A stretch of 52,678 nt of DNA from a virus (taxonomy: Duplodnaviria > Caudoviricetes), in IMG/VR virus record IMGVR_UViG_3300034068_000495, positions 1-52,678 of that record; one strand, given 5' to 3'. This document shows positions 1,491-50,996 of the stretch, in pieces. Under the pieces are notes generated by a model. The model had not been told where the DNA came from. It did no database searches and saw nothing but the letters and a program-made list of their open reading frames with translations. Position 1 is the first letter of the stretch, and the number at the start of each line of letters is the position of its first letter. The position numbers and the translations under genes were made by a program.

Positions 1491-1894
1491 CCTACCGCAT
1501 CGAAATCACAGCAGACAGCCTCACCGAACTTGCCGGCCGCGTACTGGCGCTGTCCGCGCAGTTGCAGACGACCGTACCCGTGTTCGTGCATCACGCCAGC
1601 GCGGCGCCCGCCAAAGACCCGACACCAGCCAAGACCGCCGCGAACGAGATTGTGGCGCTGATGGCTGCAGCCGCCGAGCCTGTTGCGGAAGATGCCGCAC
1701 CTGAAGTTCGCGAAAATCCTGTCGCCGCACTCGACTTCGACACCGAAGTGGCACCGCACGTGCTGGAACTCGTCAAGGCCAAGGGCAAGCCGGCAGCGCA
1801 GGAGATCCTGAGCCAGTTTGGCGTCGAGAAGGCGTCGCTGCTCGACCCGGTTCGCTGGCCTGAGCTGGTCGCCACGCTGAAGGGGGCACTCTGA
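1487..1894 (+). CDS. Conserved phage protein typically preceding the Cas4-like nuclease in APSE-type modules
   Basis: Ala/Pro linker then KGKPAAQEILSQFGVEKASLL..; position in module. Confidence 0.7.
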   Translation: MTYRIEITADSLTELAGRVLALSAQLQTTVPVFVHHASAAPAKDPTPAKTAANEIVALMAAAAEPVAEDAAPEVRENPVAALDFDTEVAPHVLELVKAKGKPAAQEILSQFGVEKASLLDPVRWPELVATLKGAL

Positions 1895-3120
1895 TGGCGC
1901 ACGCCAAGCTGAGCCCGTCGGGGGCGCACCGCTGGCTGCGCTGCCCCGGCAGCGTCGTCCTTGAGGCTCCGTACCCGGACACGAGCAGCATTTACGCCCG
2001 TGAAGGCACCGCCGCGCACGAGCTGTCCGCCATGGTCCTCGAGAACGAGGATGCAGACGCGCAGGGCTACGTCGGCTACAAGATCGAGTTCGACGACAAC
2101 GACGAAGTCGTGCAGTGGCTCGTCACGAAAGACATGGCCGACTACGTCGACGACTACGTCAAGCTCGTGCGCGACATGGCCGAGGGCAAGACGCTCTTGG
2201 TCGAGCGTCGGTTGCCCATCGACCACCTGACCGGCGAGGACGGGGCCACTGGCACCAGCGACGCCGTGATCGTGGACACGACGGGGAACAACCTGACCAT
2301 CATCGACCTGAAGTACGGCATGGGCCGCGTCGTTGCGCAGGATAACCCGCAGCTCATGATGTACGCCCTCGGTGCCTTGGAGGAGTATTCCATTCTGGGC
2401 GACTTCGCTACCATCAGCATGTACATCCACATGCCGCGCCTGAACTTCGTCAGCGAGTGGCACGTGCCGACCGAGGAGCTGCTGGCCGACGGTGAAGACA
2501 TCCGCAAGGGGGCGCAGATGTGCCGCGCGGCCGAGGACGAGGATCCGACGACCCTGAGCGAGTTCCTTGAGCCGGGCGAGGCGCAGTGCCGGTTCTGCAA
2601 GGCCAAGTCGACGTGCCCGGCGCTGCGCGCCGAGATGACGGACGTGGTGGGTGGCGACGCGGCGTGCACGCTTGACGAGTTTGCGGAGTTCTTGCCTGAG
2701 ACGGTCGACACCGCCACCGGCGACAACTACCTGCCGATGGCCATGGCCAAGGTCGATCTGGTCGAGGCGTGGTGCAAGTCGGTCCGCGCCGAGGTCGAGC
2801 GTCGCCTGCTTGCCGGGCAGAAGGTCGACGGCTACAAGCTGGTCGAGGGCAAGCGCGGCAACCGCAAGTGGGGCAGCGAGGCCGAAGTCGAGGGCCTGCT
2901 GAAATCGTTCCGCATGCGGCAGGATGAGATGTATGACTTCAGCCTGATCTCGCCGACGACTGCCGAGAAGGTATTAAAGCAAAACCCCACGCGCTGGGCC
3001 AAGGTCAAAGAGCTGATCACCCAGAGCACGGGCAAACCATCTGTGGCACCCGCCACGGATAAGCGGCCAGAACTGGTCGTTCCATCGGTCGCTGCAGATT
3101 TCAGCGACCTCATCAACTGA
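1894..3120 (+). CDS. Cas4-like PD-(D/E)xK exonuclease (DUF2800-type)
   Basis: HAKLSPSGAHRWLRCPGS, GTAAHEL, GTSDAVI, IIDLKYG, NPQLMMYALG, CRFCKAKSTCP. Confidence 0.9.
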   Translation: MAHAKLSPSGAHRWLRCPGSVVLEAPYPDTSSIYAREGTAAHELSAMVLENEDADAQGYVGYKIEFDDNDEVVQWLVTKDMADYVDDYVKLVRDMAEGKTLLVERRLPIDHLTGEDGATGTSDAVIVDTTGNNLTIIDLKYGMGRVVAQDNPQLMMYALGALEEYSILGDFATISMYIHMPRLNFVSEWHVPTEELLADGEDIRKGAQMCRAAEDEDPTTLSEFLEPGEAQCRFCKAKSTCPALRAEMTDVVGGDAACTLDEFAEFLPETVDTATGDNYLPMAMAKVDLVEAWCKSVRAEVERRLLAGQKVDGYKLVEGKRGNRKWGSEAEVEGLLKSFRMRQDEMYDFSLISPTTAEKVLKQNPTRWAKVKELITQSTGKPSVAPATDKRPELVVPSVAADFSDLIN

Positions 3121-3136
3121 CAACTGGAGATTTGAT

Positions 3137-3727
3137 ATGACTGCCAAGACACAAATCATGCTGAAGAACGTCGTCCTCGCGTTCCCGTCGATTGCCGAGC
3201 CGCAGGCCTTCGGTGAAGGCGAACCGGCCTATGGGGCAAAGTTCCCCATCAAGCCGAACTCCGAACACCACAAGGCCATCGAAGCCGCCATTCTCTTGGT
3301 CGCCAAGGAGGAGTGGAAGGACAAGGCGGACAGCGTACTTGAGATGCTGGTCGACGACGGCAAAGTTGCCTTCACCAAGAAGGTCTACAAGTCGAAGAAG
3401 ACCGGCGACGCATACGCGGGTTTCGAGGGCATGCACTACCTGTCCAGCCGCAACGCCAAGACCCAGCCTACCGTGTTCGACAAGTACGGTGAGCCTGTCG
3501 TCGGCAAGGCTGCCATCGAGCAGCAGGCGCACAGTGGCGCCGTGGCCAACGCCTCGCTCGAAATCTGGGCGCAGGACAACAAGTGGGGTCGCCGCATCAA
3601 CTGCTCGCTGCGCGGCGTCATGCTGACCGGCGAGGGCGAGAGCTTCGGTGGCGGATCGGCTCCGGCCGGCGCTGACGAGTTCGCGGCGTTCGCCAAGGCC
3701 AAGGCCGACGCGGCAGACATCCTGTGA
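3137..3727 (+). CDS. Single-stranded DNA-binding protein (DUF2815-type)
   Basis: [29 protein letters not shown], acidic/aromatic tail; between Cas4-like gene and polA. Confidence 0.85.
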
Positions 3728-3989: not shown

Positions 3990-4102
3990 GGGCGCGGGCG
4001 GTGAGCCGTCCGTGCCCTCCTTTCAGGCGGGCCGTGCTGCGCGTGGGGTGTCCCTCCCTTCGTTGCTGATAACTTCGCGGCACGGCCCACCTGAACGGAG
4101 GG
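3990..4102 (+). ncRNA. Structured leader / candidate antisense RNA
   Basis: 5' hairpin (about 3990-4017) plus 27-bp stem (4015-4041 with 4076-4102) enclosing a 34-nt loop complementary to the repeated early leaders. Confidence 0.6.
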
Positions 4103-4108
4103 ACCAAC

Positions 4109-4402
4109 ATGAAACGCACAATTCCAGAAATCCGCGAACTGATCGCCGCCTTGACCGAGGAGAGCAAGGTGCTCGCCCGGCGGCAGCTCTACATCGCGCA
4201 GAAGATCAACAAGCTGGCGCAGGAGACGCGCCGCCGGAGCTACGACCGCGCGCCGGTGACCAGTCGCCGCGTGACGGCGGCGGTGCGGGCGTCTGTGCGC
4301 CAGATGGCCGCCGACTTCCCCGACATGTCCTACCAGTCGCTGGCGGAGGCGCACGACATCAACATCGGCCGTGTCAGCGAGACACTGCACGGGAAGCGTT
4401 GA
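4109..4402 (+). CDS. Coiled-coil plus C-terminal HTH DNA-binding protein
   Basis: PDMSYQSLAEAHDINIGRVSETL is an HTH pattern; SD GGAGGG at 4097-4102. Confidence 0.7.
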   Translation: MKRTIPEIRELIAALTEESKVLARRQLYIAQKINKLAQETRRRSYDRAPVTSRRVTAAVRASVRQMAADFPDMSYQSLAEAHDINIGRVSETLHGKR

Positions 4403-6366
4403 TGTCGACGCTGTGGCTGGACCTCGAAACCTACAGCACGACCCCCATCAAGCAGGGCGCGCACAGGTACGCCGAGGCAGCCGAGGTGTTGCTGGTGGCC
4501 GTCGCACTGGACGACGAGCCGGTAGCGGTCTGGGACACGCAGGACCGGCCAGACTGGCGCTTCGACCTGCAGCGCCTCATCAACGACGCCGACACCATCG
4601 TCATCCACAACAGCGCGTTCGACCGGACGGTGCTGCGCCACAACGGCGTGCACGTACCCGTGGAGAAGATCGAGGACACGATGGTCATCGCGCTCGCGCA
4701 CAGCCTGCCGGCGTCGCTGGGCAGCCTCTGCGACGTGCTGGGCGTACCGCAAGATAAGGCTAAAGACAAAGCCGGTCGACGGTTTATACAGCTATTCACG
4801 AAGCCGTGTCCCAAGAACTGGAAAACCCGGCGCGCAACACGGGAGACACACCCAGATGAGTGGACAGCCTTCATCGAATACGCCCGTCTCGATGTGGACG
4901 CGATGCGAAACATACATGGACGCATGCCGGCTTGGAACAATTCACACGGTGAGCGGCACCTTTGGGGACTTGACCAAAGAATTAACGACCGTGGTGTCGC
5001 CATCGATCTTCAGTTCGCAGGCGCCGCAATTCGAGCTTTTCAACGAGCTACACGATCTCTGGCCGCTCGTGCGTCCCATCTGACCGGGGGCGACGTGTCG
5101 TCGACGACGCAGCGCCAGCGCTTCCTCGACTACATGCGCGACGCCCGGGGCTTCGAGACGGAGGACCTGACCAAGGGCACCGTGGAGACGCTGCTCAAGG
5201 GCACGCTGGACCCGCACGTCCGCGAGCTGCTGGAGATCCGCCAGCAGGCCTCAGCCACGTCACCGGCGAAGTTCGGCGTCCTGATCGGCTCGACGTCCAC
5301 CGACGGCCGCCTGCGCGGCACCGTGCAGTTCTGCGGCGCCGGGCGCACCGGCCGCGACGCGGGGCGGATATTCCAGCCCCAGAACCTGCCGCGTTCGCCC
5401 GACTGGTTCGACGGGGACGTGCAGGAGGCCACGATTGCGGCGTTCAAGTACGACTGCGAGGACATCATATACGACAATGTCAGCGAGCGCTGCGCCTTCG
5501 CCGTGCGCGGCGCGCTGGTGGCCGAGCCCGGCAACAAGCTCGTCATTGCCGACCTGTCGAACATCGAGGGCCGCGTACTGGCGTGGCTGGCGGACGAGCG
5601 GTGGAAGATCGAGGCGTTCAAGCTGTATGATCGCGGCGAGGGGCCCGACCTGTACAAGGTCACCGCAGGCGTCATCCTCGGCAAAGATCCGCAGGAGGTC
5701 ACCAAGGCCGAGCGCCAGACGCAGGGCAAGGTGCCCGAGTTGGCTGGGGGCTACGGTGGCGGGCTGGGCGCGTACCGCAAGATGGGCGGCGACGTGTTCA
5801 ACGCCATGGACGACGACGAGATCATGACAATCGTGCGCGGCTGGCGCAAGGCACACCCGGCGACGAAGAAGCTGTGGTACGACGTCGAGGGCGCCGTCCG
5901 TTCGGCGGTGCTCACGCCCGGCGACAGCTTCGACGTGCGCGGCCTGCTGCGGGTAGACACGGCGAGCGGCCCCGACACCGTCGGCTACGTCCGCATCCGC
6001 CTGCCGAGCGGCCGCTATCTCTGCTACCGCAACCTGCACAAGGATGACGCGGGCAAGCTGCTGTATGAGGGCGTCGACCAGTACACACGCCAGTGGAAGC
6101 TGCTGGAGACGTACTACGGCAAGCTGGTGGAGAATGTCGTGCAGGCAATCGCCCGCGACGTCTTCATGACCGGCCTGCGCAAGGCCGAGGAGGCTGGCTA
6201 CCCGGTCGTCCTGCGCGTGCATGATGAACTGGTTTGCGAGGTGCCGGACGACCCGTCGTTTACCGACGCGGCGTTGTCGGCTATGATGTCCACCAACCCA
6301 AGCTGGGCAATCGGCCTGCCACTGGCGGCGGCGGGGTTTGAGGCGCGGCGCTATAGGAAGGGTTGA
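4402..6366 (+). CDS. polA: DNA polymerase family A (phage, with 3'-5' exonuclease)
   Basis: WLDLETYS, HNSAFDR, QPQNLPR, ADLSNIEGRVLAW, GKVPELAGGYG, RVHDELV; ATG 4402 overlaps upstream TGA. Confidence 0.95.
   Translation: MSTLWLDLETYSTTPIKQGAHRYAEAAEVLLVAVALDDEPVAVWDTQDRPDWRFDLQRLINDADTIVIHNSAFDRTVLRHNGVHVPVEKIEDTMVIALAHSLPASLGSLCDVLGVPQDKAKDKAGRRFIQLFTKPCPKNWKTRRATRETHPDEWTAFIEYARLDVDAMRNIHGRMPAWNNSHGERHLWGLDQRINDRGVAIDLQFAGAAIRAFQRATRSLAARASHLTGGDVSSTTQRQRFLDYMRDARGFETEDLTKGTVETLLKGTLDPHVRELLEIRQQASATSPAKFGVLIGSTSTDGRLRGTVQFCGAGRTGRDAGRIFQPQNLPRSPDWFDGDVQEATIAAFKYDCEDIIYDNVSERCAFAVRGALVAEPGNKLVIADLSNIEGRVLAWLADERWKIEAFKLYDRGEGPDLYKVTAGVILGKDPQEVTKAERQTQGKVPELAGGYGGGLGAYRKMGGDVFNAMDDDEIMTIVRGWRKAHPATKKLWYDVEGAVRSAVLTPGDSFDVRGLLRVDTASGPDTVGYVRIRLPSGRYLCYRNLHKDDAGKLLYEGVDQYTRQWKLLETYYGKLVENVVQAIARDVFMTGLRKAEEAGYPVVLRVHDELVCEVPDDPSFTDAALSAMMSTNPSWAIGLPLAAAGFEARRYRKG
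4856..5083 (+). CDS. Candidate overprinted gene (75 aa) in the +1 frame of polA
   Basis: Leader GCAACACGGGAGACAC..ATG like early genes; polA third-position GC collapses over this ORF and recovers at its stop. Confidence 0.55.
   Translation: MSGQPSSNTPVSMWTRCETYMDACRLGTIHTVSGTFGDLTKELTTVVSPSIFSSQAPQFELFNELHDLWPLVRPI
6259..6287 (+). promoter_or_regulatory. Sigma70-type promoter inside the 3' end of polA
   Basis: TTTACC-17 nt-TATGAT. Confidence 0.45.
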
Positions 6367-6563: not shown

Positions 6564-6856
6564 CCCCCGCCAGCAAGCTGCAGGACCACCTGAAGAAGCT
6601 CGTGCAGGGCAGCGGGGGCCAGTACCGCAAGGTGCGCTGGGAGAACCGCAACGGGTGCCCTGACTGCTACATCTGGTGGACGTGGCCGCGCGCCGCCTTC
6701 GTGGAGGTCAAGGCCGACGGCGACCGTCTCAGCGGCCACCAGCAGCGCGAGATCGAGCGCATGCGGGCCGACGGCGTCCCGGTGTTCATCGCCCGGTCGA
6801 TGGAGGACATCGACGATATCGTGAAAATAGTTAGGGAGGGGGGTTGCAACCTCTGA
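6560..6856 (+). CDS. VRR-NUC domain nuclease
   Basis: GCPDC..AAFVEVKADGDRLSGHQ..EIERM...G.PVFI. Confidence 0.88.
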   Translation: MTPASKLQDHLKKLVQGSGGQYRKVRWENRNGCPDCYIWWTWPRAAFVEVKADGDRLSGHQQREIERMRADGVPVFIARSMEDIDDIVKIVREGGCNL

Positions 6857-6908
6857 TTGCATGTGCGAGAAGGGTTCATCAGCAACGCAAACAGGGACTA
6901 AGCAAATG
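6843..6908 (+). promoter_or_regulatory. Conserved phage promoter-leader element, copy 2
   Basis: TTGCAA(6844)-N7-TTGCATGTGCGAGAAGGGTTCATCAGCAACGCAAACAGGGACTAAGCAAATG. Confidence 0.85.
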
Positions 6909-7337
6909 GCACTTTCACTCTCTTATCGCGACGATCTGGTCGATCTGGGTCGTGACGAAGACGGTTCAGTTATCGTGGGTCGTTCGTTTTACGTAGTAGC
7001 AGAAGACGAAGCCGGTCATCGTTGGGCGCACGCTCATTCGTTTCTGGATCATGCCGAGCGTTACGATGCCGAGGAAGGCCTTCATTATTGGGCGCGTCGT
7101 TGGGACAACGAAGCTGAAGACGCAGTCGCCGCTCTTCTGGCTCGTATCGAAGCCGCTGTGGCCGCCGGTCGTCGTCTGGACGCCGCTCATTGGGTCGAGG
7201 TCGATCCGGCGTATGGCTCGGCTGCTTATCAGGATTTGGCCGCCGTCGGTTACTTCGCCGCTCGTGAGCGTCACGAGGCTCGCGAAGCAGGCGAAGCGGT
7301 CCCCTTCGATCAGCTTTGCGATTATCATTTTGCGTGA
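6906..7337 (+). CDS. Hypothetical protein with atypical (T-ending) codon usage
   Basis: ATG 6906 after conserved leader; W.E.DPAYGS.AYQ segment; many CGT/GGT/GCT codons. Confidence 0.8.
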   Translation: MALSLSYRDDLVDLGRDEDGSVIVGRSFYVVAEDEAGHRWAHAHSFLDHAERYDAEEGLHYWARRWDNEAEDAVAALLARIEAAVAAGRRLDAAHWVEVDPAYGSAAYQDLAAVGYFAARERHEAREAGEAVPFDQLCDYHFA

Positions 7338-7380: not shown

Positions 7381-7560
7381 ATGACCATCAACAAAAACTA
7401 CAAAGACCGGACGATCAGTTTCGAGTGCGATACCTGTGGAGACGAGTATGAGGCCGACGGCCTCAACTTCTACGACGCCTACGATGACTACAAGCAAAAC
7501 GGCGGCATCGCGCGCCTTGTCGGCGGGGATTGGGAGCACACCTGCGAGAACTGTAAGTGA
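7381..7560 (+). CDS. Small zinc-ribbon protein (59 aa)
   Basis: CDTC...CENC; leader GGAGACACCGACATG. Confidence 0.75.
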   Translation: MTINKNYKDRTISFECDTCGDEYEADGLNFYDAYDDYKQNGGIARLVGGDWEHTCENCK

Positions 7561-8915
7561 CCTTCACCCCTCACGACTACCAGCAGGAGGCAATGGCGCA
7601 CCTGTACAACGTGCGCCGGAGCGCCCTGTGGATGCCCATGGGCGGCGGGAAGACCGTCAGCACCCTGACGGCGCTGGACAACCTGTCCCTCGTCGAGGAC
7701 GTGTTCCCCGCGCTGGTGCTGGCCCCTCTGCGCGTCGCCCGGTCGACGTGGCCGGACGAGGTCGCCAAGTGGCCGCACCTGTCCCACCTGCGCGTGTCCG
7801 TCGTCACCGGCACGCCGAAGCAGCGGCAGGCGGCGCTCGACGTCCCGGCCGACATCTACACAACGAACTACGACAACCTTGTGTGGCTCCGGGAGGCGCT
7901 GGGCGACGCATGGCCGTTCCGAACGGTCGTCGCCGACGAGTTCACGCGGCTGAAGTCTTTCCGCATCAGGCAGGGCGGCTCACGCGCCCGGGCGCTGGGG
8001 CAGGTGGCACACACGCACGTCGGCCGCTTCATCGGCCTGACGGGCACGCCGGCACCGAACGGCGTCAAGGATCTGTGGGGCCAGATCTGGTTCCTCGACA
8101 AGGGCGAGCGGCTGGGCCGCACGTTCAGTGCCTTCGTGTCTCGCTGGTTCTTCAAGGGCCGCGACGGGTTCAGCCTCATCCCCTACGAACACGCGCAGAG
8201 AGAGGTCGAGGAGCGGCTGCGCGACATCTGCCTGACCGTGCGCGGCCTGCCGGTCGACAAGCCCATCACCAGCCCGATCTACATCGACCTGCCGCCGGCA
8301 GCGCGCCGCGCGTATGACGAGATGGAGGAGGAGATGTACACGATCCTCAACAGAGAGGGCGTCGAGGCGGCCAACGCCGCCGTGCGGACGCAGAAGTGCC
8401 TGCAGCTCGCCAACGGTGCGATGTACACCGATGAGTACGGCAACTGGCAGGCCGTGCACGACGCGAAGCTGGACGCGCTTGAGAGCGTCATTGAGGAGGC
8501 GAATGGCGCCCCCGTCTTGGTGGCCTATAACTTCAAGCACGATCTGGAGCGCCTGCGGGGCCGGTTCCGTCAGGGCCGAATGTTGGACGCCGACCCGCAG
8601 ACGATCAGGGACTGGAACGCCGGCCGGATCTCGATCCTCTTCGCACACCCGGCGTCGGCAGGACACGGGCTGAACCTCGCCGACGGCGGCAACATCCTCG
8701 CCTTCTACGGGGTCAACTGGAACCTTGAGGAGCACATGCAGATCATCGAGCGGATCGGCCCGATGCGTCAGAAGCAGGCCGGGTACGACAGGCCGGTGTT
8801 CATCTACCCGATCCTCGCCCGCCACACGGTCGATGATCTCGTCATGGACCGCCTGTCGTCGAAGAAGAGCATTCAAGAAATCTTATTGGAAGCGATGAAG
8901 AGGAAAGCGAAATGA
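7557..8915 (+). CDS. SNF2-family helicase
   Basis: HDYQ, MGGGKT, VVADE, GLTGTP, HPASAGHGLNL, QIIERI. Confidence 0.92.
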   Translation: MTFTPHDYQQEAMAHLYNVRRSALWMPMGGGKTVSTLTALDNLSLVEDVFPALVLAPLRVARSTWPDEVAKWPHLSHLRVSVVTGTPKQRQAALDVPADIYTTNYDNLVWLREALGDAWPFRTVVADEFTRLKSFRIRQGGSRARALGQVAHTHVGRFIGLTGTPAPNGVKDLWGQIWFLDKGERLGRTFSAFVSRWFFKGRDGFSLIPYEHAQREVEERLRDICLTVRGLPVDKPITSPIYIDLPPAARRAYDEMEEEMYTILNREGVEAANAAVRTQKCLQLANGAMYTDEYGNWQAVHDAKLDALESVIEEANGAPVLVAYNFKHDLERLRGRFRQGRMLDADPQTIRDWNAGRISILFAHPASAGHGLNLADGGNILAFYGVNWNLEEHMQIIERIGPMRQKQAGYDRPVFIYPILARHTVDDLVMDRLSSKKSIQEILLEAMKRKAK

Positions 8916-48625: not shown

Positions 48626-48708
48626 GTAAAAAACTGCATATACCCTATTGCAACCCATGCTTGCATGTGCGAGAAGGGCTCATCAGCAACACAGGAGACA
48701 CCGACATG
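48626..48708 (+). promoter_or_regulatory. Conserved phage promoter-leader element, copy 3
   Basis: GTAAAAAACTGCA..TTGCAA(48648)-N7-TTGCATGTGCGAGAAGGGCTCATCAGCAACACAGGAGACACCGACATG. Confidence 0.85.
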
Positions 48709-49143: not shown

Positions 49144-49201
49144 CACCGCCAACCCGGGGGCACACCACCCCCGGGCCAACCCCCACACAGGAGACACCAC
49201 C

Positions 49202-49980: not shown

Positions 49981-50007
49981 GCAATTACGCCAACAGGAGA
50001 CACCGAC

Positions 50008-50424
50008 ATGATCAGCAAGAAGATAACCACCCTCGTGGAGCAGGCGACCGACGACCGGGTGCTGTACCACCTGCGCCGCGCCCTCAGCGCCGCCCTCCAG
50101 TCGGAGGAGGTGAAGCCGATACCGACCAACATCGAGCTGGCAGACCGCAACTGGTCCATCTGGCGCGACCACTATGTCAACAACGTCAACAAGGCTGATC
50201 TGGCCCGGCAGCACGACATCACGAAGAGCCGCATAACTGGCATACTGGGCAAACAGATGCGCCGCGTCGTGTACGTGATAGGCTGGGATCGCGGGCACTA
50301 TGGCAGGCCGATGCGAGAGGCACTGCTGGGCGTCGAGGTCGTCTGGCGGGCGGGCGAGCCTGACTATTTGCGCATGCCAGACGGCCGCGAGGTCCTGTTC
50401 AACGGCATGCCCTACGACCGATAA
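50008..50424 (+). CDS. HTH DNA-binding protein
   Basis: RNWSIW..NKADLARQHDITKSRITGIL; leader ACAGGAGACACCGACATG. Confidence 0.7.
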   Translation: MISKKITTLVEQATDDRVLYHLRRALSAALQSEEVKPIPTNIELADRNWSIWRDHYVNNVNKADLARQHDITKSRITGILGKQMRRVVYVIGWDRGHYGRPMREALLGVEVVWRAGEPDYLRMPDGREVLFNGMPYDR

Positions 50425-50431
50425 ATTAGCT

Positions 50432-50493
50432 GTTGCAACCTGTGATTGCATGTGCGAGAAAGGCTCATCAGCAACCAAGGAGACACCGACATG
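50432..50493 (+). promoter_or_regulatory. Conserved phage promoter-leader element, copy 4
   Basis: TTGCAA(50433)-N7-TTGCATGTGCGAGAAAGGCTCATCAGCAACCAAGGAGACACCGACATG. Confidence 0.85.
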
Positions 50494-50729: not shown

Positions 50730-50996
50730 ATGACGATCACGCCCACCCTCAACGTCAACGGCACCAGCGCCGCCGACCTCATCGACCCGCGCCGCGCCGC
50801 CTTCGACCACCTGACCAAGGCCATCGACAGCCTGCGGCAGGTCACGCCGAACGGCCGCGACTATCCCGGCAACGCCGAGCGCTGCGACGCAGACCGGCGC
50901 GAGCACTTCGACCGCATCCTGACGCTCAACGCGCTCCGCGAGCAGATTTACGCCGAGGCCGTCGCCATCAACCGCAACAAGGGAGACGCAGCATGA
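50730..50996 (+). CDS. Early hypothetical protein (88 aa)
   Basis: PTLNVNGTS..L..PNGRDY; typical codon bias. Confidence 0.75.
   Translation: MTITPTLNVNGTSAADLIDPRRAAFDHLTKAIDSLRQVTPNGRDYPGNAERCDADRREHFDRILTLNALREQIYAEAVAINRNKGDAA

Follow-up and report, generated by a model that had tools for sequence, protein, structure and literature searches.

A probable overprinted gene in the +1 frame of a phage family-A DNA polymerase gene

Virus record IMGVR_UViG_3300034068_000495 (IMG/VR; Duplodnaviria, Caudoviricetes) raises the question of whether its DNA polymerase gene harbors a second gene, read in the +1 frame between positions 4856 and 5083. The window, that is, the whole stretch of DNA analyzed here, comprises 52,678 bp with a GC content of 63% and represents a complete or near-complete virus record. 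An earlier note, made from the sequence alone, had proposed a dual-coded protein at this place, and the proposal is supported by the open frame of relatives, by selection, by start signals, and by a predicted fold. Judged by the comparative sequence data, 4856-5083 probably encodes a protein of its own, as a gene overprinted on the phage family-A DNA polymerase gene (polA) and read in its +1 frame. The open reading frame (ORF) extends over 75 codons from ATG to TGA, as the earlier note had stated, and overlaps PolA residues 152 to 227, a segment that runs from the last part of the exonuclease domain through the linker into the first part of the polymerase domain.

4402-6366, + strand: family-A DNA polymerase gene, polA-like, 654 amino acids, with an N-terminal 3'-5' exonuclease domain (assigned by Pfam, PHROG, tblastn, and GC content at third codon positions [GC3])
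4856-5083, + strand: putative nested +1-frame gene, 75 codons plus TGA (assigned by ORF, conservation, synonymous diversity, and nested-frame omega)
5081-5083, + strand: nested stop codon TGA, spanning the PolA Leu-Thr codons CTG ACC

A PolA scan of viral contigs yielded 63 loci with 35 to 82% identity. The codon alignment consisted of 44 relatives and the window and was reduced to 29 sequences with less than 97% identity, the window included; nonredundant counts on the nested ORF refer to 27 relatives. All 48 related loci spanning the ORF have it intact and free of indels, and the +1-frame stops in homologues that the earlier note had named as evidence to the contrary are thus absent from this segment. 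The stop of the ORF is found at a common column in 47 of these 48 loci, and the remaining locus (L011) terminates three codons earlier. In the nonredundant set, a 75-codon +1 window is open at this position in 26 of the 27 relatives, compared to at most 4 of 27 for the 426 windows elsewhere in polA. Over the same region, the three antisense frames as well as the +2 frame are interrupted by stops in some or most relatives. The stop column reads TGA in 22 and TAA in 5 of the nonredundant relatives, the latter through a CTG-to-CTA change that is silent in PolA.

The base composition of polA changes over the same region. GC3 drops from 0.9-1.0 to 0.3-0.7 across 4744-5083, with sharp edges in 20-codon sliding windows, and returns to 1.0 immediately after the nested TGA. 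Codons ending in A or T make up 55 of the 113 polA codons in 4744-5082, compared to 45 of 541 in the remainder of the gene (Fisher p = 8e-22). These data agree with the earlier note, which had counted 24 of 39 codons ending in A or T at 4966-5082, had placed the onset of such codons around 4744, and had pointed out that the switch coincides with the nested TGA; the uninterrupted run of G/C-ending codons after 5082, given there as 46 codons, is in fact 56 codons long. With the exception of L060 (51% identity), every one of the 44 aligned relatives shows the dip in the same alignment bins, and no comparable dip is seen in the distant polymerases of Caulobacter phage RW, L060, and L044-L055. Nested second positions coincide with polA third positions, and the dip is attributed to the need of a foldable protein for A or T at many of them. 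In line with this, hydrophobic or charged residues account for 53% of the +1 translation inside the ORF and for 15% in the remaining polA +1 frame. It is the composition switch together with the comparative data, not ORF openness alone, that sets the nested frame apart from chance.

Constraint on synonymous sites was assessed from entropy and parsimony counts, a check that the earlier note had proposed and that came out in favor of a second coding frame. The entropy at polA codon positions 1, 2, and 3 equals 0.62, 0.34, and 0.69 in the nested region, versus 0.50, 0.39, and 0.99 in the remaining gene. Compared with 431 nonoverlapping windows of equal size, the nested region is the minimum for both third-position entropy (H3) and its difference from first-position entropy (H3-H1). 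Among columns with a conserved PolA residue, the third position is fully invariant in 29% inside the nested region (n = 31) and in 5% elsewhere (n = 272). Within 5032-5083, the entropy at polA position 1 (0.80 to 0.87), equivalent to the nested third position, even exceeds that at position 3 (0.43 to 0.69); in the alignment, codons of the CGA GCT xxT type change their first base and retain their last. Where the 3' part of the nested ORF lies over it, polA is confined to Ala/Arg/Ser/Thr-type codons.

On the tree, parsimony counts at polA positions 1, 2, and 3 amount to 185, 112, and 244 events in the nested region, 751, 546, and 1992 downstream, and 354, 276, and 829 upstream. The dNN/dNS ratio (omega) was calculated on 27 sequences with our own parsimony-based re-implementation in the style of OLGenie, not with the published program (method excerpted from PMC7531306). 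This ratio equals 0.61 (interval, 0.44 to 0.80) in the nested frame, compared to 0.84 in the upstream flank, 0.90 in the downstream flank, and 0.64 to 1.19 across 44 control windows. Changes synonymous in PolA but nonsynonymous in the nested frame occur at a rate (dSN) of 4.32, versus 4.58 to 7.32 in the same control windows, making the nested region the most extreme of the gene for both metrics. A crude pairwise comparison of nonsynonymous and synonymous differences by frame (pN/pS) showed a mild dip (0.63 to 1.03 in the +1 frame) that overlaps poorly conserved polA parts, and it was superseded by the tree-based counts. Selection on the nested frame is real but moderate.

The segment preceding the nested ATG provides candidate signals for translation initiation.

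4834-4849, + strand: candidate translation-initiation leader GCAACACGGGAGACAC, ending 6 nt before the ATG at 4856
48686-48701, + strand: reference leader copy GCAACACAGGAGACAC, preceding an early gene with its ATG at 48706
752-767, 49182-49197, 50471-50486, and 50974-50989, + strand: further copies of the leader 16-mer with at most 2 mismatches
4744-4855, + strand: A/T-shifted polA stretch outside the nested coding sequence, with a GC3 of 0.5 to 0.7 and no synonymous constraint

The leader contains a Shine-Dalgarno (SD)-like GGGAGA at 4841-4846. Its likeness to an early leader, which the earlier note had located at about 48684, is evident from the two sequences listed above. Allowing up to 2 mismatches, the 16-mer occurs in six copies in the window, versus 0.1 expected, all of them on the + strand and 3 to 6 nt before an ATG; no antisense copy was found in the window at the same threshold. 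The remark in the earlier note that the nested gene may be a partial target of an antisense loop gained no support. In addition, AGGAGACAC is present at 49995-50003, 4 nt before the ATG of an ORF at 50008-50424. Three of the leader copies (752, 48686, and 50471), in which GCAAC..AGGAGACAC is followed by an ATG, are directly preceded by an element of about 56 nt, located at 712-772, 48646-48705, and 50431-50490. This element consists of TTGCAA, about 8 nt, TTGCAT, and TGCGAGA, followed by TCATCA, and the three copies look like repeated early promoters with a common 5' leader.

Among relatives, GGGAGAC or GGAGAC is retained in most cases, and the nested ATG in 23 of the 27 nonredundant sequences. 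Five loci lacking this ATG (L038-L040, L045, and L064) instead carry AGGAGG(G), AGAAGGG, or GGAGGG, a spacer of 6 to 7 nt, and a GTG five codons upstream, which sits just after a +1 stop. A start that moves while its SD sequence is retained is hard to explain without translation. Taken together, a start codon with a well-spaced SD sequence is kept or replaced in 26 of the 27 nonredundant relatives.

The stretch at 4744-4855 behaves differently from the ORF that follows it. Its synonymous rate is not reduced (dSN of 7.87) and many relatives have +1 stops 9 and 23 codons before the nested start column; it is therefore regarded as noncoding with respect to the nested gene. A possible role of this stretch is to prevent mRNA structure from forming over the internal start. 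An 80-nt segment around the nested start folds at -20.1 kcal/mol, versus -27 and -28.7 kcal/mol for two other internal polA stretches, a difference that follows from the lower GC content and hence does not constitute independent evidence. Two contig joints in one DNA run (X20) leave out 4736-4846 and 4745-4858, respectively, in agreement with the extent of this unconstrained stretch upstream of the nested start, which suggests that 4736-4858 is replaced or strongly diverged in co-occurring relatives, rather than deleted. None of the 40 variant places listed from four DNA runs falls within 4825-5217; the contigs possibly derive from the same strain, and this result was given no weight.

The predicted nested protein comprises 75 residues, with a mass of 8.4 kDa and an isoelectric point of 5.0. 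Its N-terminus is predicted to be disordered and is rich in Ser, Thr, and Pro, and its C-terminal part is predicted to fold.

4928-5080, + strand: predicted folded domain, residues 25 to 75, with a beta hairpin (residues 28 to 47) and helices (residues 49 to 53 and 55 to 71)

In an AlphaFold2 model based on 26 sequences, residues 1 to 24 are disordered and residues 25 to 75 reach a predicted local distance difference test (pLDDT) score of about 85. The predicted C-terminal domain carries a conserved motif, E-L-x-x-E-L-x-x-L-W-P-L-V, and its helix is amphipathic. Neither a signal peptide nor a lipobox was recognized by eye, with no predictor run, in the polar N-terminus MSGQPSSNTPVS, and no transmembrane segment was seen by eye in the product.

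Database searches returned no relatives of this protein. Pfam gave no hits, the best PHROG match had an E value of 0.13, and Foldseek comparison of the fold against PDB and BFVD retrieved nothing at an E value of 0.001 or below. A wide fold search of the model with VIA-align reached a best Z of 3.5, with nothing above noise. A profile search of 1.84 billion representatives matched 17 proteins, none of them a free-standing homologue. Apart from P0018, the matches measure 29 to 109 amino acids and are consistent with fragments of the nested ORF itself; four sequences were read (P0012, P0016, P0018, and P0021). P0018 is a repetitive protein of 2265 amino acids matched in 24 short stretches and was judged spurious. 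The gene call P0021 (109 amino acids) begins in the nested frame, changes twice between the PolA and nested frames, and ends in the PolA frame; it probably derives from a contig with indel errors, or else represents a real frameshifted variant. In the sequence collection, the nested ORF appears only as nine small gene calls, of which the three named ones are annotated as "hypothetical protein." The lack of free-standing relatives fits a de novo origin.

The nested gene probably arose de novo within one clade of these polymerases. Thirteen more distant loci (L044, L047-L055, L059, L060, and L061) are devoid of it, as are the cultured Caulobacter phages RW (MK929790) and GB2A. In the thirteen loci and RW, the +1 frames are ridden with stops or encode unrelated strings rich in Arg, Ser, Pro, and Ala, and GC3 does not dip in a comparable way. 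In the PolA tree, 28 bearers of the nested gene form one clade with a support of 100, and two further bearers, L045 and L064, branch deeper, in a poorly supported part of the tree. The outgroups L050 and L051 have ATG AGT GG at the homologous column, as a consequence of a conserved PolA Asn/Asp-Glu-Trp, followed by a +1 frame rich in Ala, Ser, Pro, and Arg that stops after 54 codons. This frame may resemble the raw material of the nested gene.

Several observations weigh against a coding role. In a single sequence, the openness of the +1 frame survives 11 to 62% of synonymous reshuffles that leave the PolA protein fixed, and polA holds +1 open runs of 185 and 180 codons; single-sequence openness was accordingly rejected as evidence. 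Stop-codon conservation, which the earlier note had proposed to verify across homologous polA genes, holds as far as the common column is concerned, but it partly follows from the conserved Leu-Thr in PolA, as CTG ACx gives an equal +1 stop in the gene-less outgroups RW, L048, L050, and L051. For this reason, it was down-weighted as a stand-alone argument. Residues 1 to 24 of the nested product are conserved largely through the highly conserved PolA motif FIEYARLDVDAMR, which we take to be Exo III. At the start column, one relative (L024) has ACG, its first canonical start being an ATG 12 codons downstream. The nested-frame omega lies barely under the lowest control value, the margin by which the region stands out is narrow for dSN as well, and the synonymous rate is reduced by about a third, not abolished. 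The nested alignment is made of the same nucleotides as polA, so that part of what AlphaFold2 detects could be inherited; a decoy +1-frame alignment at 5324-5473 (19 sequences), with a pLDDT of 55.6, a predicted template modeling score of 0.11, and no secondary structure, argues against such inheritance without excluding it fully. Finally, the gene-less phage RW is placed as the sister of the main clade (support of 84 in the Shimodaira-Hasegawa-like approximate likelihood ratio test [SH-aLRT]), so that at least two gains or losses are needed. A single origin followed by loss, with two changes at minimum, is still compatible with the tree.

Other explanations for the composition and constraint of this segment were weighed. 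Replication origins can sit inside replication genes, as does the lambda ori in gene O, and a nucleic-acid element within polA (a replication origin, protein-binding site, internal promoter, or structured RNA) would also be expected to entail synonymous constraint and A/T enrichment; the only moderate reduction of the synonymous rate fits it as well. However, 4650-5200 contains no iterons or notable repeats, only short two-copy matches of the kind expected by chance. The string TATACA, which the earlier note had read as a possible internal -10 box, is present at 4785-4790, but a sigma-70 scan of 4300-5400 found no promoter-like site. RNAalifold detected no conserved structure in 22 sequences (covariation term of -0.64 kcal/mol). 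Moreover, such an element predicts neither the excess of variation at polA position 1 over position 3 nor an omega below all controls, and it accounts neither for the open frame in 26 of 27 relatives nor for the relocated SD sequence with GTG nor for a translation that folds confidently, which makes it quite unlikely. We consider it very unlikely that a cluster of rare A/T-ending codons slows ribosomes for PolA folding, with an incidental +1 ORF. The patch does sit at the exonuclease-polymerase boundary (Pfam matches DNA_pol_A_exo1 at PolA residues 29 to 175 and DNA_pol_A at 213 to 440), and its codons are rare in this genome. Yet the polymerases named above as having no comparable dip share this domain boundary, a pause requires rarity instead of the particular nucleotides that are invariant at 29% of conserved-residue third positions, and the initiation signals and the open frame would be left unexplained.

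A programmed +1 ribosomal frameshift from polA, producing a truncated exonuclease fused to the nested C-terminus, appears highly improbable. It would be compatible with the +1 frame of the window, which is free of stops from about 4522 to 5081-5083 (the 185-codon run), and SD sequences can stimulate +1 shifts, as in prfB. Against it stand the +1 stops that many relatives have 9 and 23 codons ahead of the start column and that leave only the last 9 codons for a shift, and the start codon with its well-spaced SD sequence, kept or replaced in nearly all of them. The sharp compositional edges would also suit a recent import from a lower-GC phage by recombination, or mosaicism, which the earlier note had put forward as a way in which its proposal could fail. 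This explanation is extremely improbable: the dip is conserved in place across a clade in which PolA has diverged to 54 to 82% identity and is therefore not a recent patch, the segment and its flanks have diverged together (541 parsimony events in the 74 codons of the segment), and the variation in the segment has moved away from polA codon position 3 and toward position 1.

With 4856-5083 read as an overprinted gene, ribosomes would start independently on the polA mRNA at the internal SD sequence and ATG, in an initiation region that matches the leader of the early genes of the phage. The product would be a mildly acidic protein of 75 residues with a disordered N-terminus and a small folded C-terminal domain, and polA would be forced to A/T-ending synonymous codons precisely where the two genes overlap. 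The protein would probably serve as an accessory factor produced along with the replication module, and it would most likely bind a phage or host protein partner through its C-terminal helix. We further regard it as reasonably probable that an independently folding domain (a beta hairpin and an amphipathic helix, without detectable relatives) originated de novo through overprinting of the exonuclease-polymerase linker of an essential DNA polymerase, that its ribosome-binding site was recruited from PolA Arg-Glu-Thr codons, and that selection kept it across a freshwater phage clade, with the outgroups representing the state before its birth.

The polA gene is part of a replication module that also contains the following genes.

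1894-3120: exonuclease
3137-3727: Gp2.5-like single-strand-binding protein, separated from polA by two small genes
7557-8915: helicase

PolA matches PHROG 17 ("DNA polymerase") with an E value of 9e-110 and is 56% identical to the polymerase of Caulobacter phage RW/GB2A by tblastn. Based on the GC3 profile, polA starts at the ATG at 4402 and not at the GTG at 4012. Its reading frame is open upstream as far as this GTG, with a GC3 of 0.3 to 0.45 and a GC content at first codon positions of about 1.0, so that the real gene in this stretch is a 97-codon ORF at 4109-4402 in another frame. This ORF corresponds to PHROG 23243, and its stop codon overlaps the PolA start. At 6800-7000, in the interval that separates the small gene downstream of polA from the genes beyond it, the GC content reaches 0.49 to 0.51, the minimum of the 3.5- to 7-kb profile. 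In four related loci, L043, L045, L064 (match of about 2.87 kb), and L065 (Caulobacter phage RW, with a PolA of 960 amino acids), the polymerase domain is interrupted by an insertion of about 300 residues, which, by eye, begins with Cys and ends with His-Asn-Cys and has a GC3 below that of the exteins. This insertion looks like an intein. The window stretch is contained in about 20 lake-water metagenome DNA runs, with no RNA run among those listed, and the GenBank phage collection holds no near-identical DNA match to it.

Gene callers forbid long same-strand overlaps, and genes of this type are systematically missed. In high-GC phages, a local collapse of GC3 that ends at an alternative-frame stop could be used as a screen to flag such hidden genes. 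The clear compositional footprint, about 48 natural replicates, and the gene-less outgroups would allow the study of the birth of a protein inside an essential gene and of its cost to the polymerase. If the proposed reading is true, the locus would be one of the few instances in which the de novo birth of a gene can be dated in a large double-stranded DNA phage, with genome compression not being the driver. Should the product be confirmed and prove to be a replication accessory or host-takeover factor, it would be an unrecognized component of the widespread module of exonuclease, Gp2.5-like single-strand-binding protein, PolA, and helicase.

Among the titles and abstracts searched, no gene nested in a phage DNA polymerase gene was found. 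The arrangement itself, an embedded same-strand overprinted gene, is already known, and the encoded protein family is without known relatives. In phage lambda, the o-spanin gene Rz1 lies in the +1 frame of the i-spanin gene Rz, and its product is an outer-membrane lipoprotein of the lysis cassette that works with the protein it overlaps. Like the nested gene, Rz1 is a small gene wholly within a larger phage gene, on the same strand and with its own start, according to excerpts from PMC5295617 and PMC6139136. In contrast to Rz1, the host of the nested gene is a DNA polymerase gene in a replication module and its product has no lipoprotein signal by eye. The polymerase host gene and the absence, by eye, of a signal peptide or lipobox led us to reject a spanin identity. 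A dNN/dNS below 1 in an alternative frame combined with range-restricted conservation is likewise described, in excerpts from PMC7531306, PMC7655111, and PMC8850804, for SARS-CoV-2 ORF3d and for antisense overlapping genes of Pseudomonas. Those cases come with expression data, whereas the nested gene is known from sequence alone. Similar in kind are genes B, K, and E of phiX174 and the single-gene lysis genes of single-stranded RNA phages, in which a short accessory protein likewise originated de novo when an essential gene came to be read in a second frame, and which are limited to a narrow taxonomic range (excerpts from PMC8227390 and PMC7693330). However, these small-phage overprints belong to tiny genomes under strong size limits, whereas the nested gene resides in a double-stranded DNA genome of about 52 kb in which space is not limiting, and, unlike them, its product has a predicted globular domain and no transmembrane segment by eye.

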